This document shows, in pieces, positions 12,730 to 58,598 of a stretch of 64,000 bases of DNA. The notes under the pieces were generated by a model. It searched no databases and was not told the DNA's origin. It worked only from the letters and a program-made list of their open reading frames with translations. The stretch is from positions 112,475 to 176,474 of the forward strand of contig JANRJN010000018.1 in assembly GCA_033763945.1 (NCBI GenBank), written 5' to 3'. Within the stretch, counting starts at the first letter, position 1. Every line of letters starts with the position of its first letter. This stretch comes from Bacteroidota bacterium (GTDB taxonomy: Bacteria; Bacteroidota; Bacteroidia; B-17B0; Aurantibacillaceae). Made by a program: the position numbers and the translations under genes.

Positions 12730-12837
12730 GTAGAATTTGCGTCTCTTTTCAAATTCGTATCGAGACGTTCTTAAACAGTTCTCGATACAATTTTTGCAAA
12801 AGGCACCCAAAATTTACTCGAACTGACTTAAAATCTT
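12730..12837. repeat. Nested-palindrome intergenic repeat (same family)
   Basis: GTCACGTCGAGTAGAATTTGCGTCTCTTTTCAAATTCGTATCGAGA...TTCTCGATAC...TACTCGAACTGAC is near-identical to the first half of the 61.2 kb units. Confidence 0.65.
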
Positions 12838-40571: not shown

Positions 40572-41639
40572 ATGTTAGAGATGGAAGATAACACAAGCAC
40601 AACTTTACAAAGTAGCACAGTTACAATTAATTTGCAACAACTTACCTTGCCATGCCAATTGTTGAGCGCCAGTAGTTGTGCATATGATATTGAGAATAAA
40701 TCTGGCATCTACCCAAAACCTTTTTCTAACCCAAACTCGGCAAAGGCAATTGGTTGGCACGAAAATATACCCACAGTTGTTGTAGGAGGAATTGATAACG
40801 TTAATGCCGCATTGGTAGGAGTGATACAAAATTTAAACGTGCAAGGTAAGCCTACTTCTTCTATTGTTATTGCTTTTCAAGGTACTTTGGCCGCTAACAA
40901 TGTTAGAGGCATTATTGATTGGATGACAGATTTTTTTGCCAAGCCTGTTCCTTTTCTATTGGCTAAAGAAGGGGCAATGGTGCACGAAGGACTTTACTAT
41001 TCGGTAAATAGTATTTTGCCAAAGCTTAAACACGTGATAGATGATTTAAAACAAAAACATGCGGGTAACGATTTACCCATTTATATTACTGGTCATAGTA
41101 AAGGTGGCGGTATGGCAAGTATTTGCGCCGCTATGTTGGCAGCCGATTATAAGATAAAAGGTGTTTACACTTTTGCGTCGCCAATGATAGGCAATGCAGG
41201 CTTTGTAGCTAATTTTCCGACACAAATACCGGTCATCCGTTTCGAAAATTATTTAGACATTGTTCCCTTTTGTGCGCCCTCTGAGGCCTTTGTGCGTAGT
41301 TTATTAATTGCTGCGCTTAATTACCCGGAGTTTGCAGAGGATTTAAAAGTGTTTATAGACATCATTCAATTATCGGGAGATAAAAATGGTGCTTGGGGAT
41401 ATGTGCCTTTGGGGCAATTACATTACATTAAAAAAAATGGTACACTAGAAATCATTAGCTATCCGCCTTATGCCCCTAACGAAAGCGCTTTAGAAATTGC
41501 CTATACCCTGGCAAGCGGCGAAAGTGGTTTTAAGCGGGTAGCAGCTGCGCATGCCCATGGTTGCAGTAGTTTAGTAAACACTGTTTTTGTACCCGGTTAC
41601 CAGAACAGTGTTTGCAAAAACTCAGGTTTGTGTAAATAA
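40572..41639 (+). CDS. Class 3 lipase-like alpha/beta hydrolase (paralog 1)
   Basis: Nucleophile elbow ITGHSKGGGMA (GxSxG) with flanking VIAFQGT...DWMTDF, as in the Lipase_3 family. No signal peptide. Ends in GLCK. Confidence 0.7.
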   Translation: MLEMEDNTSTTLQSSTVTINLQQLTLPCQLLSASSCAYDIENKSGIYPKPFSNPNSAKAIGWHENIPTVVVGGIDNVNAALVGVIQNLNVQGKPTSSIVIAFQGTLAANNVRGIIDWMTDFFAKPVPFLLAKEGAMVHEGLYYSVNSILPKLKHVIDDLKQKHAGNDLPIYITGHSKGGGMASICAAMLAADYKIKGVYTFASPMIGNAGFVANFPTQIPVIRFENYLDIVPFCAPSEAFVRSLLIAALNYPEFAEDLKVFIDIIQLSGDKNGAWGYVPLGQLHYIKKNGTLEIISYPPYAPNESALEIAYTLASGESGFKRVAAAHAHGCSSLVNTVFVPGYQNSVCKNSGLCK

Positions 41640-41910
41640 AAAACATTAAACACAGAACAAAAAAATACAATTTGGCGTTTTGTATAAAAAGTAAATTCTA
41701 ATTACCTTCCGTTTTACTCGATATTTTGCAGAAAAACCAAGTAGAAATACCTACTCTTCATATTATGGTTTCGTTACAATTTTACTTGCAAAGTAAGTTT
41801 TAATTATACTGAATGCTGATCGTTTATAAAGAATTATTGCAAATAACCTTTAAGTACAGCGTTTGTAAATTTTATGTTAGGCTAATGTATGTTTAATAAT
41901 TTTTGTCTTT

Positions 41911-42002
41911 TACTTGCTCTACTTGGTTTTTGTAAGTAAAACTACTTGGTTAGATTGCGTAATTCTACGTGTTTTTATTTTTTAAACAATGTAGTATGTT
42001 TG
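41911..42002 (+). promoter_or_regulatory. Phased triple 8-mer element plus -7 box (TATGTTTG)
   Basis: TACTTGCT (41911), then CTACTTGG (41919), CTACTTGG (41942) and CTACGTGT (41965) at 23-bp spacing. TATGTTTG at 41995-42002 lies 30 nt after the third repeat, as at 37605/37635. The third repeat lies 112 nt before the ATG at 42077. Confidence 0.5.
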
Positions 42003-42076
42003 GCTATATAAGGTTAAAAGAAATAACACTTTAAAGAGCCATTTGTAAATTAAAAATAAAGTAACACTCATAATTT

Positions 42077-43099
42077 ATGCTAGCAAAAATAAATTTACCC
42101 TGCCAGTTATTAAATGCCTGTGCCTGCACTTACGATATTGTAGATAATACAAAAACTTACAATCCTGAATCTCTTTATGCAGATACAATTGGCTGGGGCT
42201 TAGGACCCGGAGCACCAACTGTAATTACGGGTCAAAACGAAAAGTATTATGATGCCGCTTTGGTTGGCATTGTTCAAAATTTACATGTGAATAATACAGT
42301 TGCTCCAGGCATTGTTATTGCTTTTCAGGGAACAATAAGTGTTACAACACCCGGAGGGTTAAAAGATTGGATGACAGATTTTGATGCTACGCCTGTTCCT
42401 TTCATAGAAGGCAAGACCGGCGATCTGGTGCACAAAGGCATTTACGATTCGGTAAAAAGTATACTATCACAAATATTACAAGCGCTTAGTACATTACAAA
42501 ATGCCAACAATTCATTACCAATTTTTGTAACCGGGCATAGTAAAGGGGGTGGTATGGCACCAATAGCAGCAGCTATTTTAATAAACAAATACAAGTATGT
42601 AATTCAAGAGGTGTATACGTTTGCCGCACCAATGATAGGCAATGCAAGTTTTGGGGCTAATTTTCCATTAAATAAGCCCGTACAACGTTTTGAAAATTAT
42701 ATTGACATCATTCCCTTTTTAATGCCTAACGATACTTTTATAAGTACGTTAAGAACTGCGGCAAATAATGCTACTCCTATCCATAAAGTTGAAATGGATT
42801 TGTTTATTGATTTTTTATTAACTGTGCGCAATAAATTTAGTGCCACAGGTTATGTGCCTTTGGGGAATTTAAATTTTATTAATGAGAACAGAACCATAAC
42901 GGTTACCTCATTTCCCCCTAACACACCTAACCCAAGTGCAATTGATTTGGCAAGTAAATTAGCAAGCGGTTTACCGGGCTTTGTAATTGTGGGCAATGCC
43001 CACAGTCATGCTTGTGGCAGTAAAGTAACAACAAATGGTATTAATTATTTTATGGGCTATATGGGCGGCGTTGCTAATCACATGGGCTTGTGTAAATAA
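42077..43099 (+). CDS. Class 3 lipase-like alpha/beta hydrolase (paralog 2)
   Basis: VTGHSKGGGMAP nucleophile elbow. Collinear with the 40572 protein (LPCQLL.A..C.YDI, VIAFQGT, DWMTDF, RFENY.DI.PF, GYVPLG, ending GLCK). Confidence 0.7.
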   Translation: MLAKINLPCQLLNACACTYDIVDNTKTYNPESLYADTIGWGLGPGAPTVITGQNEKYYDAALVGIVQNLHVNNTVAPGIVIAFQGTISVTTPGGLKDWMTDFDATPVPFIEGKTGDLVHKGIYDSVKSILSQILQALSTLQNANNSLPIFVTGHSKGGGMAPIAAAILINKYKYVIQEVYTFAAPMIGNASFGANFPLNKPVQRFENYIDIIPFLMPNDTFISTLRTAANNATPIHKVEMDLFIDFLLTVRNKFSATGYVPLGNLNFINENRTITVTSFPPNTPNPSAIDLASKLASGLPGFVIVGNAHSHACGSKVTTNGINYFMGYMGGVANHMGLCK

Positions 43100-43111
43100 A
43101 ATTTTATAAAA

Positions 43112-43129
43112 ACGGAGTTAACCGAAATC
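43112..43129 (+). promoter_or_regulatory. Cassette-leader motif, copy 1 (partial)
   Basis: ACGGAGTTAACCGAAATC lies 29 nt before the ATG at 43158. The 3' half (GAGTAGG) is degenerate. Confidence 0.35.
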
Positions 43130-43157
43130 AAATTAAGACATATATAAACTAAAACCT

Positions 43158-44210
43158 ATGACAACAGAACAAAAACAATTAAATTTAGAAGTACCTGCAA
43201 TTACTTTACCGGCCGATCAATATGCGCATCCCGGAGCACCTACCGAGTGGTGGTGGCATGTTGGTACCTTGGTTGCAGATAACGGACGTAAGTTTGGTTT
43301 TGAAATTAATGCAGCTATGATGTTTGGTGGAGCATTTATTCAAATTGAAATTACAGATGTACAAAATCAATGTAATTATCAAAATGTAAGTTTTTTGGGT
43401 GAGTGCCCAAGTAATTGGGCCGAGAGCGACCCAACAAAACCGTGGTACGTTAAATTATCAGGCGTGCAAGCAACAGTAAATATGCAGGCTATTGGTGGCA
43501 ATCCTTTAAATATGAATGTTACTGCTTCTTTTATTGATGCAACCACGGGTAGCCAATGCAGTTTTTATTTAAACTTAAATCAACAAGGAGCACCATTGTT
43601 GGTTTGGGGTACAGGTGTTGAACAGGTTAACCCAAGTGCGCCCACGCCTTTGCAACAAAATAATTACTATTACTCTTTAACCAATTTAGCAGCCAGCGGG
43701 CACATTACTATTGGCGGCAGTGCTTATACAATTACAGGAACTACTTGGATGGATCACGAGTATGGAGCCTTTCCGCAAGGCACACCAGGGCAACCGGTAA
43801 TTTGGATGTTGCAGGATATGCAATTAAGCCACGGCTTGCACCTAAGCAATTTTACAAAATTTGGTGTGAAACCTCAATTAAACGTACCGATAGAATCGTA
43901 TGCTACTATGCTTTATAATGGCGAAAGTACCTTTGTAGAAACCACTACAATACCTATGGGACCAACCTATGTAAGCAAAAAAGGTGTAACGTATTACATG
44001 ACGTATAAAATACTCTTAAAAAATTCATCCATAAGTTTTGTAGTAAACAGCTCTTACCCCAACCAGGTATTTGTAGACCCATCTGCAGCCGATGTATACG
44101 AAGGAGTAGCCACTGCCGAAATGCTTATGACTTTGCACCTAAGCCCGGTTAAACAAAAAGAAATTGTAATAGCCTCGGGCCCGGCGTGGATTGAACAAAA
44201 CTTAGGATAA
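43158..44210 (+). CDS. AttH/CrtC-like lipocalin-fold protein
   Basis: N-terminal LPADQYAHPGAPTEWWWHVGTLVADNGRKFGFEINA matches the AttH / hydroxyneurosporene-synthase-like signature (HP...EWWY..G.L...G..fGf). No signal peptide. Confidence 0.65.
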   Translation: MTTEQKQLNLEVPAITLPADQYAHPGAPTEWWWHVGTLVADNGRKFGFEINAAMMFGGAFIQIEITDVQNQCNYQNVSFLGECPSNWAESDPTKPWYVKLSGVQATVNMQAIGGNPLNMNVTASFIDATTGSQCSFYLNLNQQGAPLLVWGTGVEQVNPSAPTPLQQNNYYYSLTNLAASGHITIGGSAYTITGTTWMDHEYGAFPQGTPGQPVIWMLQDMQLSHGLHLSNFTKFGVKPQLNVPIESYATMLYNGESTFVETTTIPMGPTYVSKKGVTYYMTYKILLKNSSISFVVNSSYPNQVFVDPSAADVYEGVATAEMLMTLHLSPVKQKEIVIASGPAWIEQNLG

Positions 44211-44227
44211 AATAAATAATAAAACTT

Positions 44228-45916
44228 ATGAGAACAGAAATTATTTCTAACGGCTTTTTTAAAGCCAAAGCATACGCCGGCACATATGTAGTCGTTTTGG
44301 CGTGGGATGTTGATAATTCGGACAATTCACTTATCAAAGATCTTCTAGGTTTTGCAATCGAAAGGGCAGAAGTTGAGGGGGATGTTGAAATTGAAAAATA
44401 CCCGATGAAGGGCATTAAGCGATTTAAAGATAAGGATAAAGGTCTTGCGCCCGGCACACCCGTTTCTACTTTTGAACACCCCGTACAGACCTTTCAATGG
44501 TGCGATTATACGGCTAAAGAAAACAAAGAATATATATACACGATAACGCCACTGTATGGAACTCCAAAAAACCTAAAATCAAATAATGAAAATAAAATTT
44601 CACTAAAAGTTAAAACTGAAGCGGTTATTGGAGCTCAACACAATGGTACTATTAAGCATGACATTTTTTTTAACAGAGGTGTTATTGGTTCTCAGGCATA
44701 TGCAAGAGAATTTGGAAATGCTGAACCTAACCGCGAAGCCCCAGAATCAAGCGAAATGAAATGGTTGTCAAGGGGCTTATTTGAAGCGTTATCTGATTTT
44801 ATTGGGATGGCAAAAAATGAAAACTTCGGTTTAAGAGCTGCTTTTTATGAGTTTCATTATTTACCAATAGCAATGAGTTTTGCAAAATCTGTTGAAGCAG
44901 GTGCAGATGTTAAAATTGTTTACGATGCAGAAAGTTCTTACAAAGAAGAAAATAAAAAAACCATTGATAAAGCTGGCCTTAGCGAAGCGGGTATAACAAT
45001 TCCCAGAACTGTTTCTGAAGGAATCAGGCATAATAAATTTATTGTACTTCTCGAAAACGAAAAACCTATTGCTGTATGGACCGGTTCTACAAACATATCG
45101 GCAGGCGGCATTTTTGGACATTCTAATGTGGGCCACATAATATGGGATAAAGATATTGCAGAACAATATCACGACTATTGGAAAAGATTATCCGAAAATT
45201 TAACTTCAACTAAAATCAGACCGCTAAATAAAGAAGCAACTCCAACTCCGGCCAAGAAACCTAAAAAAAACAGTATTACACCTCTTTTTAGCCCTAGGGA
45301 TGGAAAAGAAGAAAATGAAACATTAGAATGGTACGCCAAACTAATGGATAGCGCTGAGAAAATTATGTGTATTACTTTAGCTTTTAATTTAGATGAGGCT
45401 TTTCAAAATGTTATTAAAAAAGAAAACGATGTTTTAAGATACATCGTTAAAGATGATAATTTGGGCGCCAATGAAGATATTGGCACAGACAAAGATGTGA
45501 TATTTGCCTCCGGTGGTTATTTCGGAAAAAATTCATTGTTTAATTTTTTGCAAGAAAGGGATAATCCATTAAATACCAACGATTATATACACAATAAGTT
45601 TATGCTTGTTGACCCATTGAGTAACGACCCCATTGTTGTTACAGGATCCGCCAATTTTAGCCGGCCATCCCAAAGAATAAACGATGAAAATATGGTTGTA
45701 ATAAGAGGAAATACCAGGGTTTCTGATATTTATTTTGGTGAATTTTTGAGAATATTTGATCATCATTACGCACGGTACATTAGCCGTAAACTACAGCAAG
45801 AAAACAAAAACGACCCAAATGCAGGTTACTTAAAGACAGACAATAGCTGGACAAAATTACATTTCGACACTAACAGTTATAAATATAAAAGAAAAAAATA
45901 CTTTATAAACTCCTGA
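44228..45916 (+). CDS. Phospholipase D-superfamily (HKD) protein
   Basis: Two HKD-type blocks: IRHNKFIVLL...WTGSTNISAGG and IHNKFMLVDP...VTGSANFSRPS. The roughly 130-aa N-terminal beta domain is unassigned. Confidence 0.8.
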   Translation: MRTEIISNGFFKAKAYAGTYVVVLAWDVDNSDNSLIKDLLGFAIERAEVEGDVEIEKYPMKGIKRFKDKDKGLAPGTPVSTFEHPVQTFQWCDYTAKENKEYIYTITPLYGTPKNLKSNNENKISLKVKTEAVIGAQHNGTIKHDIFFNRGVIGSQAYAREFGNAEPNREAPESSEMKWLSRGLFEALSDFIGMAKNENFGLRAAFYEFHYLPIAMSFAKSVEAGADVKIVYDAESSYKEENKKTIDKAGLSEAGITIPRTVSEGIRHNKFIVLLENEKPIAVWTGSTNISAGGIFGHSNVGHIIWDKDIAEQYHDYWKRLSENLTSTKIRPLNKEATPTPAKKPKKNSITPLFSPRDGKEENETLEWYAKLMDSAEKIMCITLAFNLDEAFQNVIKKENDVLRYIVKDDNLGANEDIGTDKDVIFASGGYFGKNSLFNFLQERDNPLNTNDYIHNKFMLVDPLSNDPIVVTGSANFSRPSQRINDENMVVIRGNTRVSDIYFGEFLRIFDHHYARYISRKLQQENKNDPNAGYLKTDNSWTKLHFDTNSYKYKRKKYFINS

Positions 45917-45923
45917 AAAAATA

Positions 45924-45942
45924 ACGGAGCTAACCGAAAATC
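45924..45942 (+). promoter_or_regulatory. Cassette-leader motif, copy 2 (partial)
   Basis: ACGGAGCTAACCGAAAATC lies 28 nt before the ATG at 45970. The 3' half (AATGAATACG) is degenerate. Confidence 0.4.
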
Positions 45943-45969
45943 TAATAATGAATACGTATAAAAAAACAA

Positions 45970-46452
45970 ATGGAACCAATTAAAGGAATTAAAGACGAGC
46001 TTTTAAGATTATTGGAAGAAGCAGAAGAAGAATATCTTAATTGGTATACTTCAAGAAGCACTTATAGTAAATGGCTTTGGCACATTTTACTAATATTGGC
46101 AATATTGCCTGGTTTTATAACAGGCGTAATAGCTGCATATGGTGAAAAAAGTATTTTTAATAGAGATTGGTTGGTTTGGTTACCAATAGGTGGTTCCTTT
46201 GCAGGAACTTTATTAACGCAATTCAAAATTTACGACGTCTGGAAAATTCGTGAGGATGGTCGTATTGCATTTGAAGGCTTTATAAATTTAATACGTGGTC
46301 GAATAAGTTTAGTTAATACGCCGGATGAACTTGGAAAAATTTATTTCGACTTACAACAAGGGATTAACGACATTGAAACGGATGCCCTTCAAAAATTCTT
46401 TATACTATCAAGCTCAGAATTTGTGGCAAAGTTTCAAAAAGTAACACCTTGA
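45970..46452 (+). CDS. 2-TM protein, SLATT/DUF4231-like
   Basis: N-terminal helix (EEEYLNWYTSRSTYSKW), two TM helices, then KIYDVWKIREDGRIAFEGFI. This is the W...R...E-type helix seen after TM2 in the DUF4231/SLATT family. Confidence 0.45.
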   Translation: MEPIKGIKDELLRLLEEAEEEYLNWYTSRSTYSKWLWHILLILAILPGFITGVIAAYGEKSIFNRDWLVWLPIGGSFAGTLLTQFKIYDVWKIREDGRIAFEGFINLIRGRISLVNTPDELGKIYFDLQQGINDIETDALQKFFILSSSEFVAKFQKVTP

Positions 46453-46465
46453 TTAATTTACAATA

Positions 46466-47635
46466 ATGAAAAAGAATAATTTATTAGCATTAGTTTTAGC
46501 TTGTTTGGTATTCCTAATACAGGGACAATCTCTGCAAATTGATAGGGATGACTTCGAAACGGTTTTCACAGAACATGAACAAAAAATATTTGGTGAAGTT
46601 CCATCGGATATAGAAGATATTAATAATAATCTTAAATCTTTAGAAAGGTTTAAAGGATACGAAAAAAATAATTTTAAAAATTTCCAAGAGACGATTTTGC
46701 TTTTATCTGAGCCGCCAAAATTAGATACTTTGTATATAAGAAACGAAATACGAGAAATTGAAAAGTTTGCCAAAAATTCAAGGCCTCAAAATTACTCAGA
46801 GATATTCTATCGCAATCAATCTTTGATAAGACACCTAACGTTTTCATCCCAATTTTATTGGCTCAGGGACGCTCTATTTTATTCTTACACTAAACAAAAA
46901 GAGAACAAACCAATAGAAATTTCATCATTTATTAGCGAAACAAGGTCAAAAGAAGAAAGAATTCGCGAAGAGTTTTTTAATGGTATTAATATACAAAACG
47001 TTGATTATGGTGATTATGGGTACAGATTTACGTCAGATACAATAGATAAACAAATAATTGAATCATTAATAAAGGATTTAGACAGGTTAAAAAAAGTAAA
47101 TTTTATACTACTTAATAAAGCTTACAAAGAATTATATGAGGCTTCAAAAATGTATCTCACCAACAAAAAAAGTGATATAGAATTAAGGCTCACAAAAATC
47201 GATCAGTTCATTAAGGAACATAAAAAAGTCAGGAAGGAAAGAAACCAGGATATTAATGAATGGGGAATTCAAAGAGGCCTGCCTTGGTATTGCGGAACTG
47301 TTGTTATTCTTTTTTTAGTTACTGTATTTAGTCGTAATGGTTTGCGTAGAAACAGATTTGATAACAAGAATAATGCAGATGCAGGTAATCAGGAGCATCT
47401 CTCAAAAGTCCTCCTTGAAGTTATTACTGTCCTGCTATTAACATTAACTATTCTTATTCTCGGCCTTACCAATATCTTAAAGGAGAATGTCCTTGGTACT
47501 TTAATCGGAGGTATTGCTGCGTATATTCTTAATCGATCAAGAAACATGCAAGATGAGCAAACAAAAATCACTAAGGCTAATCCAAACGGAATTGTAACTA
47601 AATTAAATACAGATAAAAGCAATGAAAACCTATAA
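46466..47635 (+). CDS. Hypothetical secreted/membrane protein
   Basis: Signal peptide, helical and coiled-coil middle, three C-terminal TM helices. Starts 13 nt after the SLATT-like gene. Confidence 0.5.
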   Translation: MKKNNLLALVLACLVFLIQGQSLQIDRDDFETVFTEHEQKIFGEVPSDIEDINNNLKSLERFKGYEKNNFKNFQETILLLSEPPKLDTLYIRNEIREIEKFAKNSRPQNYSEIFYRNQSLIRHLTFSSQFYWLRDALFYSYTKQKENKPIEISSFISETRSKEERIREEFFNGINIQNVDYGDYGYRFTSDTIDKQIIESLIKDLDRLKKVNFILLNKAYKELYEASKMYLTNKKSDIELRLTKIDQFIKEHKKVRKERNQDINEWGIQRGLPWYCGTVVILFLVTVFSRNGLRRNRFDNKNNADAGNQEHLSKVLLEVITVLLLTLTILILGLTNILKENVLGTLIGGIAAYILNRSRNMQDEQTKITKANPNGIVTKLNTDKSNENL

Positions 47636-47659
47636 ACTTTAAAAAATAATAAACTAAAA

Positions 47660-47692
47660 ACGGAGCTAACCGAAAATCCGATAAAGAGTAGG
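47660..47692 (+). promoter_or_regulatory. Cassette-leader motif, copy 3 (full)
   Basis: ACGGAGCTAACCGAAAATCCGATAAAGAGTAGG. CGGA/TCCG can pair around a 12-nt loop. GAGTAGG ends 14 nt before the ATG at 47707. Confidence 0.5.
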
Positions 47693-47706
47693 TGAAAAAA
47701 TAGCAA

Positions 47707-49149
47707 ATGAATCTTATAAAACAAATAACAACAATTCTATTATGTCTCTTTTTTATTAATAATTTCTCACAAGAAAAGGAAAGAAAAACCAGTTATATTG
47801 AGATTGATATAAAGAAACCGGAGACATGGGACAAAGGGGCTTGTGACAGCATAACTATTATTAATAAGGATAGAGGATTTAAGTCTATCATTAAAAACGA
47901 ATTTACAAAAGTAGTAAATGGTTCATCAGACCTTAATATTGGATCTTTTGCTTCCCTAGATGTAACGAAAGCAACGGGTGTTTTTAAATATACTTCGGCC
48001 GATAATAATGGAAATTTATATACACTTGGCGCTACTGGCGGTATAGATGAAGGTGTTTTTAATCTTTTCACCGATAAAAAACCTAATTCAAACATGGATA
48101 TTAATTTTACCGGACATTTTCTTAATGTTATTAAACAAATTGGATTTAGTGCTAAAGAATGTAACGAAGCTTTACTAGCAATAAGAAAAGAACGAAAAAG
48201 AATAAATGCCCTAATGATTGAAGCAAGAATAAAAGTTAAACTTGATTCTGCCTTAAATAAATTGGCTGTGGACTGTAGAAATGACCCATGTCCCACTATA
48301 CCTTATGATAGAAAAGGGCTGGCAGATACAAATTTTATAAAATTACTTCAGTGTGGAAAAAATGCTTGTGTCTCACAAGCTGATTCTCTTCGCTATGAAT
48401 ATAATCTTGCATTGCACGAACTTGCAAAACAAAAACTTGAATCCAAATTGGATAGTCTGCATAAGGTTTTGGAAAAAAAGGAAAAAGAACTAGCAAAACT
48501 TAATGTGAAAACTCTTAAAATGAGGTGGTTATCACTAGGTGGTTCTTATAAAAATAATAGTTTTAAACTGCTTAATGAGACTGATAGTGTTATTAAAACC
48601 CAATTAACAAAACAAATAGGCAACGTTTTTTCTTTAAATTTGGCGTATAATTTCTATCGTTGGCAGTCTTTAGGTTTTTCGACTTACTTTAATATAAATG
48701 CTTCCATTAAAGCTTCAGATAATTTTGATGATTTGAGTAAAAAAGATATTACTGATACATACAAATTAAACAACGGTAATGTAACTAGAGAATATAATAC
48801 TAAAACTACGGCATATTCTGGAATTTATAAATCATCTTTTCTAGCTTTGAACTTTGCCTCTAATTTATATCTTTTTTTATTTAAAAATAAAGCAGCCATA
48901 CATTTATGGGGGGATGTAAATTTTGACTCGAAAAATGAATTTGATCTAGATTTTGAAAGACCTATTTATGATGCGTCTATTGGACTTTTACTTTGTCCTA
49001 TTGATGCAAAAGATAAAAGTCAAAGAAGTATTCAAAATGTTGAACTTTTCATAAAACTTAAAGATGTTTTTAATGGTTTTCAAAATATAAATAATTATGA
49101 TAAAACTATAGTTGGTTTAAGATTTACAACTCCTATTAACTTTAAATAA
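47707..49149 (+). CDS. Hypothetical secreted protein (possible outer-membrane beta-barrel C-terminal half)
   Basis: Signal peptide, central coiled coil, and a C-terminal half with alternating-hydrophobic beta-strand pattern ending RFTTPINFK. Confidence 0.45.
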   Translation: MNLIKQITTILLCLFFINNFSQEKERKTSYIEIDIKKPETWDKGACDSITIINKDRGFKSIIKNEFTKVVNGSSDLNIGSFASLDVTKATGVFKYTSADNNGNLYTLGATGGIDEGVFNLFTDKKPNSNMDINFTGHFLNVIKQIGFSAKECNEALLAIRKERKRINALMIEARIKVKLDSALNKLAVDCRNDPCPTIPYDRKGLADTNFIKLLQCGKNACVSQADSLRYEYNLALHELAKQKLESKLDSLHKVLEKKEKELAKLNVKTLKMRWLSLGGSYKNNSFKLLNETDSVIKTQLTKQIGNVFSLNLAYNFYRWQSLGFSTYFNINASIKASDNFDDLSKKDITDTYKLNNGNVTREYNTKTTAYSGIYKSSFLALNFASNLYLFLFKNKAAIHLWGDVNFDSKNEFDLDFERPIYDASIGLLLCPIDAKDKSQRSIQNVELFIKLKDVFNGFQNINNYDKTIVGLRFTTPINFK

Positions 49150-49157
49150 AATAAATT

Positions 49158-49376
49158 ATGACAAAAGAAATAACAAATTCTACCAAACTCTTCCTCTCTA
49201 ATGAAAAGTACCAATTTATATGTAATACATGTGGCGACAAAGCAGAAGTGACCAATAACTGGACTATAGCTCAAAACGAAGCGTCCAGTCACAAAAAAAC
49301 AAACCCTAATCATGATGTAGATATAATAATACTACACGAAATTATTAGTCGAAATAATTTTAGAACAGAGGAATAA
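49158..49376 (+). CDS. Small hypothetical protein
   Basis: 72-aa ORF starting 8 nt after the previous stop. Contains CNTCGDK...H..H. No family recognised. Confidence 0.35.
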   Translation: MTKEITNSTKLFLSNEKYQFICNTCGDKAEVTNNWTIAQNEASSHKKTNPNHDVDIIILHEIISRNNFRTEE

Positions 49377-49603
49377 GGATAAAATATTTTGTTAATTTCT
49401 TACTGATTATTTGTTGACTATTGTTATAAATTTAGTTTTAGTTTATATAATATTATAAGGAATAAACAAACAAAAATTAATACCATGTAATAAATAAAAC
49501 AAATTTTATGAGAGAATTTTATTGAATCTCGCATTAAAAAGGAGTATAAAAGAATTCCCCTTTCCTCCCTAAAATCCCTATATTTTAAAAAAAAAATTTA
49601 AAT

Positions 49604-49636
49604 ACGGAGCATGCCAAAAATCCGATAAAGAGTAGG
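49604..49636 (+). promoter_or_regulatory. Cassette-leader motif, copy 4 (full)
   Basis: ACGGAGCATGCCAAAAATCCGATAAAGAGTAGG. CGGA/TCCG can pair around a 12-nt loop. GAGTAGG ends 16 nt before the ATG at 49653. Confidence 0.5.
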
Positions 49637-49652
49637 CACAAAAAAAACAGTT

Positions 49653-50300
49653 ATGTCATTAGTATCAAGAAAAGAATTTGAACGTTTGTACTCAGCAGAG
49701 TTATTGCCGGCATCCGGCGAAAATTATTCAATTGGCGATATTTGGGATTGGGAGGGACTTATTAACCAAAAGTTGGTGTTTAGGTTTGAGAGCGTTACCG
49801 ACGTAGTTATGAACGAGGAGTTAAAACAAAAACTTAAAAACATACCCCTGGTGCAGGGTAATTTACCGGAGGTTGACATGACCTCTGACATTAAAATTGA
49901 TGCCGGTGCCGCCATACCTGTTTTAAAAGACATTAATGTGGGCAATAATTTAGATGTGAAAAGCATTGTAAAATTTAGTTTTGGCAATGTAATGAGCAAA
50001 AATATTTTAGACTACCGCATGGATTTTAACAGAGAACTGGAAAAACTGAAAAACCAAAATTTTGACAAGTACAAAGAAAAAATACGCAATTACGAAGTAG
50101 TAATGCAGTATTGGTATGCGGGCAGTGTAAATTTGGTGGTAGACAAAACCGTGGGCGATACCGCCAATATAAAAGCAAAAATACAGGGCATGGGGCTGGA
50201 ATTTAAAAGCGATGTAACAACCGATAATAAAGAAACCATAAGCATAAAAACCTCTAAAGCACCGTTTGCAGCACAGTTTATGAAAGGCAGGGATTTGTAA
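49653..50300 (+). CDS. Hypothetical beta-rich cytoplasmic protein (speculatively gasdermin-like)
   Basis: 215 aa with no TM helix or signal peptide. Beta-strand-like segments flank one Lys/Glu-rich helix (NRELEKLKNQNFDKYKEKIRNYE). The CDS call is sound; the fold assignment is only a guess. Confidence 0.5.
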   Translation: MSLVSRKEFERLYSAELLPASGENYSIGDIWDWEGLINQKLVFRFESVTDVVMNEELKQKLKNIPLVQGNLPEVDMTSDIKIDAGAAIPVLKDINVGNNLDVKSIVKFSFGNVMSKNILDYRMDFNRELEKLKNQNFDKYKEKIRNYEVVMQYWYAGSVNLVVDKTVGDTANIKAKIQGMGLEFKSDVTTDNKETISIKTSKAPFAAQFMKGRDL

Positions 50301-50382
50301 CAAACAATTTTAAGTAAGTACAAACGCTTACAAACGGATATGTGGCGCCTAGCGACTAGTTAGCGGTCACCTTATAAAGACA

Positions 50383-51420
50383 ATGCAAGAAACGAACGAC
50401 ATATTAAACCTTAAAGTTTCCTTCCAAGAAAATACTTGGACAGATGTTTCTTTAATTGAGCCAACAATTAAAAACGTTTTAGATTCTCAGAAATCTGACA
50501 AATACAAACAGCAGGTAACAAATTTAAGAACCAACCTTGACAAAGGAAATACAGACTATTATAACGAGAATAAAAAGCGTTTACCGGCAGTTACGTTTAG
50601 TGCAACTTTTAATTCAAGCAGGACAAGGGAAAACGTAAAATATTACAATAGTCTCATTGTTCTGGACATTGACAAACTTAATCCTGAACAAATTGAAATC
50701 TGCTACAAGCAGCTTCTTCAAGACGATTTTGTTTTTTCTTTTTGGCGTTCACCATCAAATAAAGGCTTTAAGGGACTTGTTCAGTTAGAATTTATAGACA
50801 TTTCTGACGAAATAGACCTTGACACAAAACACAAAAGTGCCTTTAAGAAATTATCAAACTATTTTCAGAATACATACAATTTAGAACTTGACAAAAGCGG
50901 AAGCGACATTAGTCGCTTGTGTTTTCTTTCTTACGACACTGAACTCGTAAGAAAAGAAACATCTAAAAAGTTTCAAGTTTCAAATGATGACATCAAGGCA
51001 ATTGCACCGAAAACAAATAACGGAAGGACAAGAAAAATTAAGTTTGTGAGCAACAGAGATGCTTTATTCAATCCATTAGAAAGAAACAACCAATATGATA
51101 GAAAATTGATGACGGATATTATTCGTTATTTAACAAATAAAAACTTGTCAATTACTTTTTCTTATTCTGAATGGTGTAGAGTTGCTATGGCGATAGCTAA
51201 TACATTCACTTACGATATTGGGCTAAATTATTTTACAAAATTGAGTAAATTGGACGGAGCAAAATTCAATGAAATTCATTGCACGAATTTTTTAATTAAT
51301 TGCTACGAAACAAAAAATGGTAATGTAACTTTTGCAAGTATAATTCACTTAGTAAATCAAAAAGGATATAAAACAAAACAACAAAAAATAAAGGAAGGGG
51401 TTCTGAAGGTGGAGAGTTAA
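50383..51420 (+). CDS. AEP primase-polymerase-like protein (VirE_N/BT4734-like N-domain plus PriCT-like C-domain)
   Basis: LPAVTFSATF...SLIVLDIDKL (DxD), FWRSPSNKGFKGLVQLE (sPSGkG-like) and SDISRLCFLSYDTELV, then a C-terminal helical YSEWCRVAMAIAN region. No helicase or P-loop domain. Confidence 0.65.
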   Translation: MQETNDILNLKVSFQENTWTDVSLIEPTIKNVLDSQKSDKYKQQVTNLRTNLDKGNTDYYNENKKRLPAVTFSATFNSSRTRENVKYYNSLIVLDIDKLNPEQIEICYKQLLQDDFVFSFWRSPSNKGFKGLVQLEFIDISDEIDLDTKHKSAFKKLSNYFQNTYNLELDKSGSDISRLCFLSYDTELVRKETSKKFQVSNDDIKAIAPKTNNGRTRKIKFVSNRDALFNPLERNNQYDRKLMTDIIRYLTNKNLSITFSYSEWCRVAMAIANTFTYDIGLNYFTKLSKLDGAKFNEIHCTNFLINCYETKNGNVTFASIIHLVNQKGYKTKQQKIKEGVLKVES

Positions 51421-51496
51421 ATCTTCGCAAGTATCACTGTCATCAACGGTTAAGCACAACCCGACAGCTTAAAAAGTGCACGACATTATATGTCAG

Positions 51497-51504
51497 TATC
51501 TTTG
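51497..51504 (+). promoter_or_regulatory. Candidate -7 promoter box for the RT gene
   Basis: TATCTTTG matches TAnnTTTG and ends 5 nt before the first ATG (51510). This would favour the ATG at 51552 as the real start. Confidence 0.3.
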
Positions 51505-51509
51505 TCAAT

Positions 51510-53339
51510 ATGCGAGCAATCGCTTTACAGGAACCCTTTCCTTTTTTTATTATGAGAACATTTGAAAGTTATTTTAGCGAAAATGAAATCTTGAAATTAG
51601 TTTGCAAGGTTCGTGTTAAACTTGCTAAGAACAAGTCCAAGAAGCATTTATTGCATTTGTTAACTTCAAACCCTGCTTTCAATTATCACGTTAAATTCAA
51701 CTCTGAACCCGAAAACGATTTTGAACAAAATCAAAAAGAACTTTCGGAGTTTTTATTGTCAATTTTGCCCCCAAGAAAAAAATGGTTGAAATTGGGCGAA
51801 GATTCAAGAAGAAAGCCCAACAGTAAAAATGAATTTCTTACTTCAAACGACAAAAATTATTATAGCCTATTAAAAACGATAAAAGCAGAAAGTAAAAAAG
51901 CTGTTAAAGCTAATTGGTATATCAACTTACAGAAATTTATAAACGACATTATTGTTGTTTCTAAAGGCAATGAATACGAAGTTTCAAAACCAATCATTTT
52001 CCCAAAACTAAAAGATAAAATAAAACAAGAAGGGAAAAATGAATGTAGACCTATTTGCATTTACAGTTTGAAAGACCGTATTATTTTAAGCCTGACAAAT
52101 AAATTTTTGACAAGAGTTTTTGATGAGCAATTTCAAGATAGTTCTTATGCGTTTAGAGCAAAGAGAAATTCACAAGGGAACATTATCTCGCATCACGATT
52201 GTATTGTCGGCATTGGAAATTATAGAAACGCAAATGCAAACAGCAAATTATTTGTAGCAGAATGTGATATGAAAAAATTTTATGACACAGTAAATCATAA
52301 AATTGCTTGGCATTTGTTTCAATCTTTGTCAGAAACAGCAAAAGCAACTTACGCAGAACTCAATTTTGAATCGCCAATCAAAATATTTAATAGTTACTTA
52401 AACAGCTTTGCTTTTAACATTGATATTCCAAAAGAAACAGACACTGCATATTGGACATCATATAAAATTCCAAATGGTTTTTTTGGTTGGATTGACGAAG
52501 CAACTATAAATATTCACTATACTGATATTTGTGTCGAAAGAATAGGAATTCCACAAGGCGGAGCACTTTCGGGGCTAATTGCAAACATCTATCTAAATCA
52601 AGCCGACATAGAATTGAAAAAAATCGATGTGTTTTATCAGCGTTTTTGTGATGATATGATAATTATTGCCAAAGATTTTTACACTTGCGATACAGCAAAA
52701 AATGCTTATGAAGTTGAGTTGAAAAAATTAAAATTGTTTCCTCACAAATTCAAAAGCACCAACGAATTAAAAGAGACAACTATTGGAAAAACAAAACTAT
52801 CAAAGTTTTGGGAAGGAAAATCAAAAGGACCTTACAAATGGGGAAAAGTTGAAGACAATGCTTTCCCTTGGATTGGTTTTGTTGGCTATGAAATGGATTA
52901 TTTAGGAAACATTCGTGTTCGCAAAAAATCATTGTTAAAAGAACTTGCTAAACAAAAAACGATAATTCGTGAAATCAAGAATGCTGTAAAAGAAGGAATG
53001 CGAAAACCTAAAGGGACAGCGACTGAATCTGCAATAAACAGACTTATTGGAATGTCAGTTGGCAGAATTGGGCTTGACAATTTTGACGAAGTATCAACTG
53101 ATATGTGTTGGAAAAACGGGTTTAGAGAATTGACAGTAAACAAGCATTCAAAAGGACAAATAAAGCAATTGGACAGAAATCGAAGTAAACACTATTACAA
53201 GTTACTCAAAGAATTAGAAGAACCGGAATTAGAGTTTGACGAAGACGAAGAGAATGAAAAAAGAAAATATGTAAAGTATGACAAACCTTTTAGTTACTAT
53301 CATCAAATCATTGAACGACAAAGAAAGGCGAACCGCTAA
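51510..53339 (+). CDS. Stand-alone reverse transcriptase (unclassified; alternative start 51552)
   Basis: RT motifs in order: RPICIYSLKDRIILSLTNKFL (1/2), CDMKKFYDTVNH (A), GIPQGGALSGLIANIYLN (B), YQRFCDDMIIIA (C, xxDD at about 52644-52655), LKLFPHKFK (D) and FPWIGFVGYEMD (E). It has a roughly 170-aa N-terminal and a roughly 140-aa C-terminal extension. Confidence 0.85.
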   Translation: MRAIALQEPFPFFIMRTFESYFSENEILKLVCKVRVKLAKNKSKKHLLHLLTSNPAFNYHVKFNSEPENDFEQNQKELSEFLLSILPPRKKWLKLGEDSRRKPNSKNEFLTSNDKNYYSLLKTIKAESKKAVKANWYINLQKFINDIIVVSKGNEYEVSKPIIFPKLKDKIKQEGKNECRPICIYSLKDRIILSLTNKFLTRVFDEQFQDSSYAFRAKRNSQGNIISHHDCIVGIGNYRNANANSKLFVAECDMKKFYDTVNHKIAWHLFQSLSETAKATYAELNFESPIKIFNSYLNSFAFNIDIPKETDTAYWTSYKIPNGFFGWIDEATINIHYTDICVERIGIPQGGALSGLIANIYLNQADIELKKIDVFYQRFCDDMIIIAKDFYTCDTAKNAYEVELKKLKLFPHKFKSTNELKETTIGKTKLSKFWEGKSKGPYKWGKVEDNAFPWIGFVGYEMDYLGNIRVRKKSLLKELAKQKTIIREIKNAVKEGMRKPKGTATESAINRLIGMSVGRIGLDNFDEVSTDMCWKNGFRELTVNKHSKGQIKQLDRNRSKHYYKLLKELEEPELEFDEDEENEKRKYVKYDKPFSYYHQIIERQRKANR

Positions 53340-53341
53340 CA

Positions 53342-53453
53342 GCACCTACAAGAAATTGGCGGTTCAGTGGTTAAATGAAGCATTGTGCTTCGTATCAAGT
53401 TCAGTACTGGCAGACAGTTTAGTGCTTCGAAATCGCCAATTTCTTGTAGCTGC
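53342..53453 (+). ncRNA. Candidate structured RNA/DNA element closed by a 16-bp perfect inverted repeat
   Basis: CTACAAGAAATTGGCG (53346-53361) is the exact reverse complement of CGCCAATTTCTTGTAG (53434-53449), and 3 more pairs follow one mismatch. The 72-nt interior holds the hairpin GAAGCA-ttg-TGCTTC (53377-53391) and two direct-repeat units (GTTCAGT...GTGCTTCG twice). It starts 3 nt after the RT stop. Confidence 0.45.
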
Positions 53454-53483
53454 AAACCGTTATTAAAAATTAACATAAGTAAT

Positions 53484-53930
53484 ATGGATTCAACTAACAA
53501 AGAACTTCCCCTTACTTCAAAAACTTATTTTTTAAAACAGGGGCAAAGCATAAGCAAGCTATATGCTTTAATAAATCATAACGTGTTAACACATCGCTTA
53601 AAAAAATGGTTTTCTGTATTAATAGAGCTAATTTTATATGTTTTGTTTTTATTGGGGGTTTCAATCAGTATTACTATTCCAACCAATATTAACTTATTTA
53701 TAGCAGGTAACGATGATACCAGTTTAACCGGTACTATTAACAATGAAGATTTTTATATTGTGATGTTATGTATCAAATTAGTTATTTTTCTCATTTCGTT
53801 ACCTATTTTGTTTTTTGCAATTGTTTTGATGCGTAACCGAAAAAAAAACAATTTAATACATAAAGTATTTTCAGAAGTAAAGGAAATGAAAGAAACATTT
53901 AATAAGGCATTAACAGATTTAAATTTATAA
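53484..53930 (+). CDS. 2-TM membrane protein (paralog of 37682-38164)
   Basis: The start is moved to the ATG at 53484 because the track ORF start at 53385 lies inside the inverted repeat. Two TM helices and a basic post-TM2 segment (MRNRKKNNLIHKVF). Confidence 0.55.
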   Translation: MDSTNKELPLTSKTYFLKQGQSISKLYALINHNVLTHRLKKWFSVLIELILYVLFLLGVSISITIPTNINLFIAGNDDTSLTGTINNEDFYIVMLCIKLVIFLISLPILFFAIVLMRNRKKNNLIHKVFSEVKEMKETFNKALTDLNL

Positions 53931-53991
53931 CTCATTAATTGGAGATAATGGCATTAGCCCTGCTGCAGAAGGTATTTTAATTAAGAACAAA

Positions 53992-54055
53992 ATGGAGTAA
54001 CCCAAAAAGCCATAAAATGAGTAGGGGGCGATAACCGAAAAGCCAAAAGAGTAGG
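53992..54055 (+). promoter_or_regulatory. Cassette-leader motif, copies 5a and 5b (tandem)
   Basis: ATGGAGTAACCCAAAAAGCCATAAAATGAGTAGG (53992-54025) and GGCGATAACCGAAAAGCCAAAAGAGTAGG (54027-54055). The stems TGG/CCA and GGC/GCC replace CGGA/TCCG. The ATG at 54074 lies 18 nt downstream. Confidence 0.5.
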
Positions 54056-54073
54056 ATTAAAACAAAAATTATT

Positions 54074-56970: not shown

Positions 56971-57059
56971 TTTTCATTGTTTCTTTAACTGTCATTAAAA
57001 TTGCATTTTTTTACGGTTCTTTTCACAATTAATTGTATTATATTAGTTGTGTAAATTCC

Positions 57060-58598
57060 ATGCGCCAACAAAAAACATACCAACTATTATTTTGTGTAAT
57101 GTGTTTTTTTACGGTAAAAAGTTTTAGTCAAACTTCATCAAAAAAATTAGCAAACATTAATGCGTTTAACTCCATTTTAGGGAACTATTTTTACGTAGAT
57201 GCCAATTTAAGTATTTTACCTAGATGCACAAACAATGATATAAGTTTTGATACCTTATATGCACTTATAAAAAATAATTTTAACACCAATTTTAATTACA
57301 ATCTCGAGAGCAGGCAGGAACTTAAAAGCCCATCGTCCAACGTTATTACTTTAAATTTAAAGTTTGATAAAAACGGCTGTTGTATTAATGAAACCCGCCG
57401 CACCTTTAAAAAGGATAAAAATAAAACCTATTTTGTGTTTTCGCGCAAACAAATCGATTCTGTTTTTTGGCGTACAAAAAATTATTCTGCCATCACCAAT
57501 GGTGAACAATTTAATGAGTTATTGACTTTGGATGAGAATGGAAGAAATTTATCATTGTTGGCAGACCAAATTAATGATACAGTTAATAAATTAAACATTA
57601 GTAATATCGTTTTTTTTGTGCATGGCTACAATGTGCCTCATAGCCTGGCACAGCTACAGGGTAATCAATTAATTTCTACGCTTGCACAATTACATCCTGA
57701 TAAAAAATATTTATTTATACGTGTGTTTTGGGATGGGGGCGACCGTAAAAAATTTAGTGTTCGTTACAAGAAAAACAAAACCGGCGAATTAAAATTAAAA
57801 TGTTTTACCTATAAAAACACCATTAGTTTAACTAACGGCTTAAAGTTTGGTGAAAAACGCAAACAAGCAAGTGATTATGGTATTTCACTCAGACGCTTAC
57901 TAGTGCTGTTGCAACAATACGATGCTTTAAAAAGTAAGCAGTATTATATGGTAACGCATAGTCTTGGTGCTATTGTTGCTACCAGCAGTTTAATAAATAA
58001 TGTCAACGATTTGTATGTTAAAAAAAAGTGGTTTAGAAATTATATTTATAATAACAATTTTCAAACGGATTCTTTAAATCTTAATACCATTGAAAAACGT
58101 GTAAAGAAGAACAAATGGTTAACTTCAAACAAAACAATAAATAATAACAATAGCTTAAAAAATTATTTAAAAATTGCCGCCATAAAACACATTCATTTAC
58201 CCGACTTAAATGTAAAATTGTTTTTAAATGCACCAGCCATTGCAGGGGTAGATTTGTTTAAACATGCCGATTTAGAAAAAAATTACCATTACAACATCGG
58301 GCATAATATTTTTGATCCCATTTTAGCAAAACGTTTTTTGTTTCAAAATGTCATGTTATCGGGTTATTTTTCGCAGCTATTTGGAACAACATCACTTGGG
58401 CTGAATTACAATAACGAAGTGGGTATGACACAGTTTGTTTTAAGTAAAAAAGCTAAAAGCTTTAAACAAAAATATCCATCAAAGGAGGTTCATTTTAAAT
58501 TAAGTGCTTTTCAAACAAGCGATGTATTTGATCATGATTTGTTTACTTATTCAAAAAATCCATTATTTTTAAAAGCGTTTCAATCCTATTTTGAATAA
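57060..58598 (+). CDS. Alpha/beta hydrolase, DUF900-like
   Basis: The ATG at 57060 gives a signal peptide. IVFFVHGYNVPHS and YYMVTHSLGAIVA (GxSxG-type HSLG) match the DUF900 esterase-like pattern. Confidence 0.55.
   Translation: MRQQKTYQLLFCVMCFFTVKSFSQTSSKKLANINAFNSILGNYFYVDANLSILPRCTNNDISFDTLYALIKNNFNTNFNYNLESRQELKSPSSNVITLNLKFDKNGCCINETRRTFKKDKNKTYFVFSRKQIDSVFWRTKNYSAITNGEQFNELLTLDENGRNLSLLADQINDTVNKLNISNIVFFVHGYNVPHSLAQLQGNQLISTLAQLHPDKKYLFIRVFWDGGDRKKFSVRYKKNKTGELKLKCFTYKNTISLTNGLKFGEKRKQASDYGISLRRLLVLLQQYDALKSKQYYMVTHSLGAIVATSSLINNVNDLYVKKKWFRNYIYNNNFQTDSLNLNTIEKRVKKNKWLTSNKTINNNNSLKNYLKIAAIKHIHLPDLNVKLFLNAPAIAGVDLFKHADLEKNYHYNIGHNIFDPILAKRFLFQNVMLSGYFSQLFGTTSLGLNYNNEVGMTQFVLSKKAKSFKQKYPSKEVHFKLSAFQTSDVFDHDLFTYSKNPLFLKAFQSYFE

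Follow-up and report, generated by a model that had tools for sequence, protein, structure and literature searches.

DUF805b RNA pseudoknots before start codons in an accessory island of a Bacteroidota genome

The DUF805b RNA is a candidate RNA from the survey of Weinberg et al. (2017; PMC5737381), although it is not discussed in the body of that article. Rfam holds it as RF02914, in the cis-regulatory class and clan CL00115, and it appears among the pseudoknot-containing families of Rfam 14.3 (PMC11539752, Table 4). Here we analyze its copies in a 64,000-nt stretch of a Bacteroidota bacterium (assembly GCA_033763945.1, contig JANRJN010000018.1, positions 112,475–176,474; hereafter the window, numbered from its first letter). 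An earlier note on this window had described a recurrent motif just upstream of start codons and had not recognized it as a known element. From its sequence, we identify that motif as the already catalogued DUF805b RNA, neither new nor specific to the island in which it lies.

The clan is shared with DUF805 RNA (RF03081), a 68-nt, two-hairpin element that precedes rhodopsin and other genes in genomic loci. Its 3′ half is a DUF805b-like unit, from which it differs by an extra upstream hairpin (GUGGAG..CCAC). The RF03081 model finds no match in the window at its gathering threshold, where the one doublet consists instead of two full DUF805b-type units. It does match eight loci of our wider scan (L122, L128, L131, L135, L143, L173, L179, and L222; L-numbers label loci throughout).

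Other described leaders are similar in form. The preQ1-I riboswitch, the smallest known aptamer, is an H-type pseudoknot of ∼34 nt with a short second helix (P2) and an A-rich third loop (L3), located just 5′ of a translation start. DUF805b resembles it in size, topology, P2, L3, and location, but shows no similarity in sequence or covariance model (E up to 10, 42–56 kb of the window) and has no queuosine-related genes downstream, and its Bacteroidota hosts have no Shine-Dalgarno sequence to sequester. The leaders of phage T4 gene 32, E. coli rpsO, and ColIb-P9 repZ contain pseudoknots that modulate access of the 30S subunit and, as in DUF805b, lie immediately 5′ of an unstructured initiation region. 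Each of these is the operator of a specific gene and has a known partner, either a protein or an antisense RNA, whereas DUF805b is phylum-wide and stands before unrelated genes.

Copies in the window

A scan of the window with Rfam 15 at curated thresholds gave exactly two matches, both to RF02914 and both above its gathering score of 35.6 bits. A further site, at 54025–54057, scored just under this value at a permissive threshold, and the copies at 53992, 45924, and 43112 do not qualify. Our own covariance model (R1), applied unfiltered to both strands of all 64 kb, scored the sites at 45.8, 44.7, 33.2, 14.9, and 14.4 bits and found no copies beyond those already known; all are on the + strand, between 43 and 54 kb only. 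The sites form a graded series of two full-length copies, one diverged tandem doublet, and two decayed copies:

43112–43144, + strand: copy 1, decayed, seen in the short-pattern scan only; ATG at 43158
45924–45956, + strand: copy 2, decayed (R1 14.4 bits, E 0.065); ATG at 45970
47660–47694, + strand: copy 3, full DUF805b RNA (Rfam 37.5 bits; R1 45.8 bits, E 1e-10)
47661–47664 and 47677–47680, + strand: first helix (P1) of copy 3, CGGA with UCCG
47665–47668, 47672–47676, and 47681–47690, + strand: loops L1, L2 (GAAAA), and L3 (AUAAAGAGUA) of copy 3
47669–47671 and 47691–47693, + strand: P2 of copy 3, ACC with GGU
47693–49149, + strand: region downstream of copy 3, with a 14-nt A-rich spacer from GG to ATG
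49604–49638, + strand: copy 4, full DUF805b RNA (Rfam 37.6 bits; R1 44.7 bits); ATG 49653 is 16 nt after GG
49605–49608 and 49621–49624, + strand: P1 of copy 4
49613–49615 and 49635–49637, + strand: P2 of copy 4, GCC with GGC
53992–54026, + strand: copy 5a, diverged upstream unit of the doublet (R1 14.9 bits, E 0.05), tail AUGAGUAGG
53992–53995 and 54010–54013, + strand: P1 of copy 5a, AUGG with CCAU
54001–54003 and 54024–54026, + strand: P2 of copy 5a, CCC with GGG
54025–54057, + strand: copy 5b, downstream unit of the doublet (Rfam 33.6 bits; R1 33.2 bits, E 4e-7); ATG 54074 is 18 nt after GG
54027–54029 and 54042–54044, + strand: P1 of copy 5b, GGC with GCC
54035–54036 and 54054–54055, + strand: P2 of copy 5b, CC with GG; the outer position is A-A and unpaired

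Three functional-looking copies lead the genes at 47707, 49653, and 54074, and two decayed copies stand before those at 43158 and 45970. The earlier note had given these five start codons correctly, and the in-frame upstream stops that it had checked for two copies are present before all five. It had also placed the motif in full at 47660–47692 and 49604–49636. The first of these is exact, and the 33-mer occurs only there, even with three mismatches allowed (0 expected in shuffles). The second is a full-length member but not an identical one: copy 4 differs from copy 3 at four loop positions (GCATGCCAAAAA versus GCTAACCGAAAA), and its L2 is AAAAA instead of GAAAA. The tandem pair reported at 53992–54055 does comprise two units, but these are diverged. 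As for the two partial copies, the 5′ half of copy 2 (ACGGAGCTAACCGAAAATC) is identical to that of copy 3, but its P1 3′ arm and GAGUAGG tail have degenerated to GAAUACG, so that the full pseudoknot cannot form; in copy 1 only ACGGAGTTAACCGAAAT is recognizable, and this site falls below every threshold, being unreported by R1 at E up to 10.

In the doublet (53992–54057) the second unit starts directly after the GG of the first, the same layout as in L139, L179, L220, and L221. Such doublets are rare, with four among 240 pattern-scan loci (∼176 distinct copies with a P1 stem) plus that of the window. Copies 1–4 have a common P1 (CGGA/UCCG) and a common 5′ flank, at which unrelated family members vary freely, and this identifies them as local duplicates of one leader. 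Comparable local duplications are found in L009, L035, L121, and L204.

The cmscan alignments show the DUF805b consensus features in the window copies, namely the P1 hairpin with its 12-nt loop, the loop sequence CCGAAAA, and the A-rich AGAGUAGG tail. The copies also lie in a Bacteroidota host (33% GC, encoding Por_Secre_tail proteins of the type IX secretion system), on the sense strand, and just upstream of an open reading frame (ORF). With the pseudoknot likewise in common, there is no essential difference from RF02914; what is particular here is that several copies, two of them decayed, are grouped in one accessory island. The motif is non-random and genuine, and the island copies are ordinary DUF805b members.

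Structure, distribution, and position of the element

We specified a structure for the element and scored it in two alignments, one of 71 distinct viral and window copies (A1) and an independent, model-derived one of 101 genomic copies (A3). It is paired in 98.6% of cells in the former and 96.9% in the latter; slid registers reach no more than 54%. Each of the three P1 pairs that were scored covaries (counts for the closing pair are GC 33, AU 29, CG 5, UA 3), and the compensatory changes to which the earlier note had drawn attention (CGGA/UCCG, UGG/CCA, GGC/GCC) are genuine and confirmed family-wide. A crossing helix of 3 bp joins NCC in the loop to GGN′ after GAGUA, and the base just 5′ of the loop CC covaries with that just 3′ of the tail GG. 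This outer P2 pair is GC 40, UA 14, GU 7, CG 4, AU 3, UG 1, and unpaired 2 in the 71-copy set, and GC 45, UA 21, AU 8, CG 8, GU 5, and unpaired 7 in the genomic set. Our search pattern fixed the CC and GG, and a descriptor scan leaving both free was run in addition, returning 184 CC/GG copies. The inner P2 is compensated in rare variants, GCU/AGC (L017 and L047), GAU/AUC (L039), and GUC/GAC (L184), and wobble variants also occur. A fourth P2 pair has no support (31 of 80 paired).

This covariation describes an H-type pseudoknot that runs P1-5′, L1, NCC, GAAAA, P1-3′, an A-rich L3 ending in G-AGUA, and GGN′. P1 is 3–6 bp long and freely covarying, L1 is ∼4 nt and starts with G, and GGN′ is followed by a G-poor, A-rich spacer of ∼14–29 nt and then AUG. 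Since DUF805b was already listed as pseudoknotted, our finding of this fold is a rediscovery. The P1 hairpin alone folds at −3.7 kcal/mol (z about 0), no better than shuffles, so the structural evidence is covariation and not folding energy; with P1 alone this weak, tertiary contacts or a partner must stabilize the fold. The unpaired nucleotides are nearly invariant across family copies. G-U pairs occur in both helices, and these, together with strand specificity, mean that the fold exists in RNA and not in DNA. The earlier description of a non-coding, strand-specific RNA element with a covarying stem and a conserved GAGUAGG tail, just upstream of starts, therefore stands.

The flanks of P2 suggest a further feature. 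The bulged-G (sarcin-ricin/loop-E) module has the consensus AGUA opposite GAA beside a Watson-Crick pair, and nearly all copies carry the pattern AGUA-GG and CC-GAA. The invariant GAA 3′ of CC and AGUA 5′ of GG may accordingly form a sarcin-ricin/loop-E-type module stacked on P2.

We scanned the pattern CCGAAAA-N5-8-AAGAGTAGG in IMG/VR viral contigs and in a collection of species-representative genomes, finding the motif in at least 120 stretches of each. Among the 80 genome records listed, almost all are Bacteroidota (Flavobacteriia, Bacteroidia, Chitinophagia, Sphingobacteriia, Cytophagia, and Saprospiria), a few are Ignavibacteria or Kapaibacteria, and the handful assigned to other phyla, which have no stem, are probably matches by chance. 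All 14 viral copies sampled pass the Rfam threshold. The 129 distinct proteins encoded downstream fall into 118 BLAST clusters, and 112 representatives show no shared Pfam theme. Most have no Pfam match, and the rest are scattered over outer-membrane β-barrels, bacteriorhodopsin, DUF805, DUF4234, RDD, aegerolysin, LipL32, methylases, and phage proteins; seven of the downstream proteins are bacteriocin-like peptides with a GG leader. An enrichment in secreted or membrane proteins is unconvincing, with N-terminal hydrophobic segments in 43% versus 38% of controls. As read from these sequences, DUF805b is used by all Bacteroidota classes and their phages before unrelated genes.

Some downstream genes recur. 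Motif-led peptides of 45–65 aa with MKNLKK...GG double-glycine leaders, bacteriocin-like in character, are found in L133, L157, L162, L182, L204, and other loci, and in L204 the peptide ORFs are duplicated along with the leader. Microbial rhodopsin genes of several Bacteroidota lineages are preceded by the motif (L128, L135, L201, L210, and L228), which is striking for a rare gene; L128 and L135 carry the two-hairpin DUF805 form. Genes with a ParB-like nuclease domain are repeatedly motif-led in independent Bacteroidota phages (L008, L042/L067/L102, L085, and L249 at 12777–12817).

A same-strand ORF of at least 30 aa with an ATG start begins 8–40 nt downstream of 81% of stem-bearing copies, compared with 18% of random positions in the same loci. 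The distance from GG to ATG is 17–29 nt in most copies, with a mode of 20–25. An exact Bacteroidota −7 box (TAnnTTTG) ends 9–32 nt upstream of P1 in 21 of 66 distinct viral copies (2.7% expected by chance), so that the motif is transcribed near the 5′ end there. Among genomic copies, 4 of 104 have a consensus promoter within 40 nt, about the chance level. The motif is placed relative to the start codon, not to the promoter.

The spacer between pseudoknot and ATG contains only 1%–5% G. The frequency of A is 0.80 at −12, 0.68 at −13, 0.65 at −6, and 0.68 at −3, compared with 0.51, 0.49, 0.43, and 0.50 in rough control ORFs of the same loci. In a study of F. johnsoniae (PMC6847099), adenines at those positions were shown to promote initiation, and mRNAs tended to lack pairing between about −20 and +20. 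By its composition, the spacer is a very good Bacteroidia initiation region, and the pseudoknot lies directly against the 5′ boundary of the zone where ribosomes land.

A large group of related, big viral contigs (L002, L011, L018, L022, and many contigs of IMGVR_UViG_3300045988; ∼60–180 kb) keeps one conserved arrangement: a TATCTTTG promoter box, ∼27 nt, the pseudoknot, ∼22 nt, and the ATG of a small ORF. The leader of one of them (L002) gave no megablast match against deposited phage records.

Predicted role and competing explanations

Bacteroidota do not use Shine-Dalgarno pairing, and how initiation is tuned on their mRNAs is only partly understood. We lean toward a model in which DUF805b, as a leader or intercistronic H-type pseudoknot of ∼35 nt, modulates in cis, via a conserved partner, the start of translation at the ORF that directly follows it. 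The pseudoknot would be transcribed within the mRNA leader or intercistronic region and would fold at the 5′ edge of the region (∼−20 to +20) that Bacteroidia ribosomes need unstructured. Because the helices are weak by themselves and the unpaired positions are almost invariant, a partner in trans, which may be the 30S subunit or ribosomal protein bS1, an RNA-binding protein, or a small ligand, would be needed for folding or action. A loop-E-type module on P2 would provide a typical recognition surface. A conserved pseudoknot in this position could plausibly be a part of Bacteroidota initiation control that has so far been missing.

The cultured Flavobacterium phage lillamy9-1 (complete, 38 kb) contains exactly one copy, which is flanked by gp040 and the ParB-like gp041 and belongs to the early/replication module. 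A single copy per phage genome, before an early gene, argues against a generic enhancer of strong expression and for selective regulation.

Several points weigh against a role in initiation control. The sole lillamy9-1 copy precedes a ParB-like early gene and not a capsid gene or that of another abundant protein. The loop-E assignment is built on a sequence pattern, and copy 4 has AAA where GAA is expected. The window spacers (14–18 nt) are short by the standard of the family, and no alternative pairing or expression platform is visible. A full-text literature search turned up no functional study of DUF805b RNA.

A bolder version of initiation control, which we put forward only tentatively, would make DUF805b a phylum-wide device for translation control without Shine-Dalgarno sequences, either as a structured docking site for the Bacteroidota 30S subunit or bS1 or as a new minimal riboswitch for a global signal. 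The invariance of the unpaired nucleotides in genomes and phages alike would be accounted for in both cases. A docking site would be a bacterial analog of a mini internal ribosome entry site or an enhancer, exploited by phages and mobile islands. The leaders serve accessory genes, among them those for rhodopsins, outer-membrane proteins, and bacteriocin-like peptides, as well as phage early and defense-island genes, and might find use as an expression part when gut Bacteroides or Flavobacteria are engineered.

We think it unlikely that DUF805b is a small-molecule aptamer of the preQ1-I size class, in which a ligand would stabilize the P1/P2 pseudoknot and initiation would be altered by the folded RNA bordering the landing zone. 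Topology and size do fit the preQ1-I-type H-pseudoknots (P1 of 3–6 bp, P2 of 3 bp, A-rich L3), and the near-invariant unpaired nucleotides, weak intrinsic stability, recurring tandem doublets, and selective control suggested by one copy per phage genome are all in keeping with an aptamer. However, the downstream genes, which extend from phage early genes to defense-island genes, have no pathway coherence, and this weighs against a pathway-specific riboswitch. Moreover, no Rfam riboswitch matched the same 42–56 kb at E up to 10. Neither a terminator nor a sequestering helix is present, and the fold does not include the initiation region.

Still less probable is an mRNA stabilizer or processing signal, which would block 5′-end-dependent decay or set cleavage sites that split a polycistronic island transcript, making the cassettes of the earlier note an RNA-level phenomenon. 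The viral motif does start within a few to ∼25 nt of the predicted transcript start, and copies 1–3 of the window sit in 53–71-nt gaps between co-directional genes. Yet the constant distance is to the ATG and not to the 5′ end, genomic copies are rarely near a consensus promoter, and a simple block of decay needs no phylum-wide invariant loop nucleotides.

A DNA-level cassette-boundary site, whether alternative-sigma promoter, regulator operator, or attC-like recombination site, would suit the recurrence of the motif at the start of two-gene units and, by sequence reading, an AAC-N17-GTA spacing that is loosely like that of extracytoplasmic function (ECF) promoters, but it is effectively excluded by compensation in two crossing helices that include G-U pairs (A-C mismatches on the other strand), strict sense-strand specificity, standard −7 boxes upstream of the motif, length variation of 2–4 nt inside the would-be promoter spacer, the lack of any integrase or recombinase among the genes Pfam-scanned (38.4–59.6 kb), and AttH homologs elsewhere that lack the motif.

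Resemblances to particular known elements were also rejected. An ECF-type or other promoter is ruled out by the covariation with its G-U pairs, by the −7 boxes that lie upstream, and by indels where the promoter spacer would be, and a Bacteroidota sigma-A promoter is further excluded by the lack of a −33 TTTG or −7 TAnnTTTG within the motif, exact −7 boxes lying upstream in 32% of viral copies. By inspection, neither AAAGAGUAGG nor an AGGAGG-like P1 arm shows convincing complementarity to the 16S 3′ tail, and P1 covaries away from GGAGG. A likeness to lambda boxB or ops is superficial only (GAAAA, GUAG), and a crosslinking and immunoprecipitation (CLIP) paper on RbpB contained no relevant motif. 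Integron attC sites are imperfect palindromes of ∼57–141 bp at cassette 3′ ends with an integrase nearby, whereas this element is 33–35 nt, stands at gene 5′ ends, and covaries in the manner of an RNA. The ToxI RNAs of type III toxin-antitoxin systems are tandem pseudoknot repeats of ∼36 nt upstream of a cognate endoribonuclease toxin, whereas DUF805b copies are mostly single and the proteins downstream mutually unrelated.

Gene content of the island

By Pfam and PADLOC, the island comprises two Lipase_3 genes, an AttH/CrtC lipocalin with a PLD gene, two unknown gene pairs, a DUF7634-like gene, a BT4734-like/PriCT_2 primase-like gene, a UG39-class reverse transcriptase, and an orphan gene. Copy 3 leads the following pair:

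47707–49149, + strand: ORF of 480 aa with an N-terminal signal-like segment and no Pfam match
8 nt behind ORF 47707–49149: 72-aa DUF7848-like ORF

Genes without the motif are packed behind motif-bearing ones, as the earlier note had it, at junctions of 17, 13, and 8 nt. Between units 1–3 we found no −7 box or terminator-like site, so these units probably share one transcript, in which the motif would be an intercistronic leader. A near-consensus −7 box, TATATTTT, can be read ∼25 nt upstream of copy 4.

The proposal that the motif divides the island into cassettes holds only as a description; the same leader occurs phylum-wide before more than 100 unrelated gene families. Nor is it linked to one gene family: it is missing before the AttH/CrtC homologs of other Bacteroidota (L246 and L247), and the DUF805-type copy of L245 stands before a different gene. 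The leader is portable and independent of gene family. The four island copies are best read as local duplicates of such a leader, with no sign of a role in boundaries or recombination. In practice, the annotation to be given to the motif is DUF805b RNA, and it should not be treated as a boundary signal specific to the island.

The reverse transcriptase at 51510–53339 is a near full-length match to PADLOC RT_UG39 (E 7e-202) and is preceded by the BT4734-like_N/PriCT_2 primase-like gene at 50383–51420. An exact Bacteroidota −7 box (TATCTTTG) at 51497–51504 ends 5 nt before its ATG, implying a leaderless or very short-leadered transcript or a different true start. Directly after its stop, at 53336–53470, a 23-nt inverted repeat (53342–53364/53431–53453, 91% complementary) encloses ∼66 nt. 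This segment folds at −46.6 kcal/mol (z −5.8), has no Rfam match, and is a candidate non-coding RNA associated with the reverse transcriptase.

The accessory region at 40572–45916 and 57033–58598 is rich in lipase- and phospholipase-type genes, with a SprT-like gene nearby. The set comprises two Lipase_3 paralogs, a PLDc_2 protein with weak similarity to DrmC/ZacB/PbeA, and a DUF900 α/β hydrolase.

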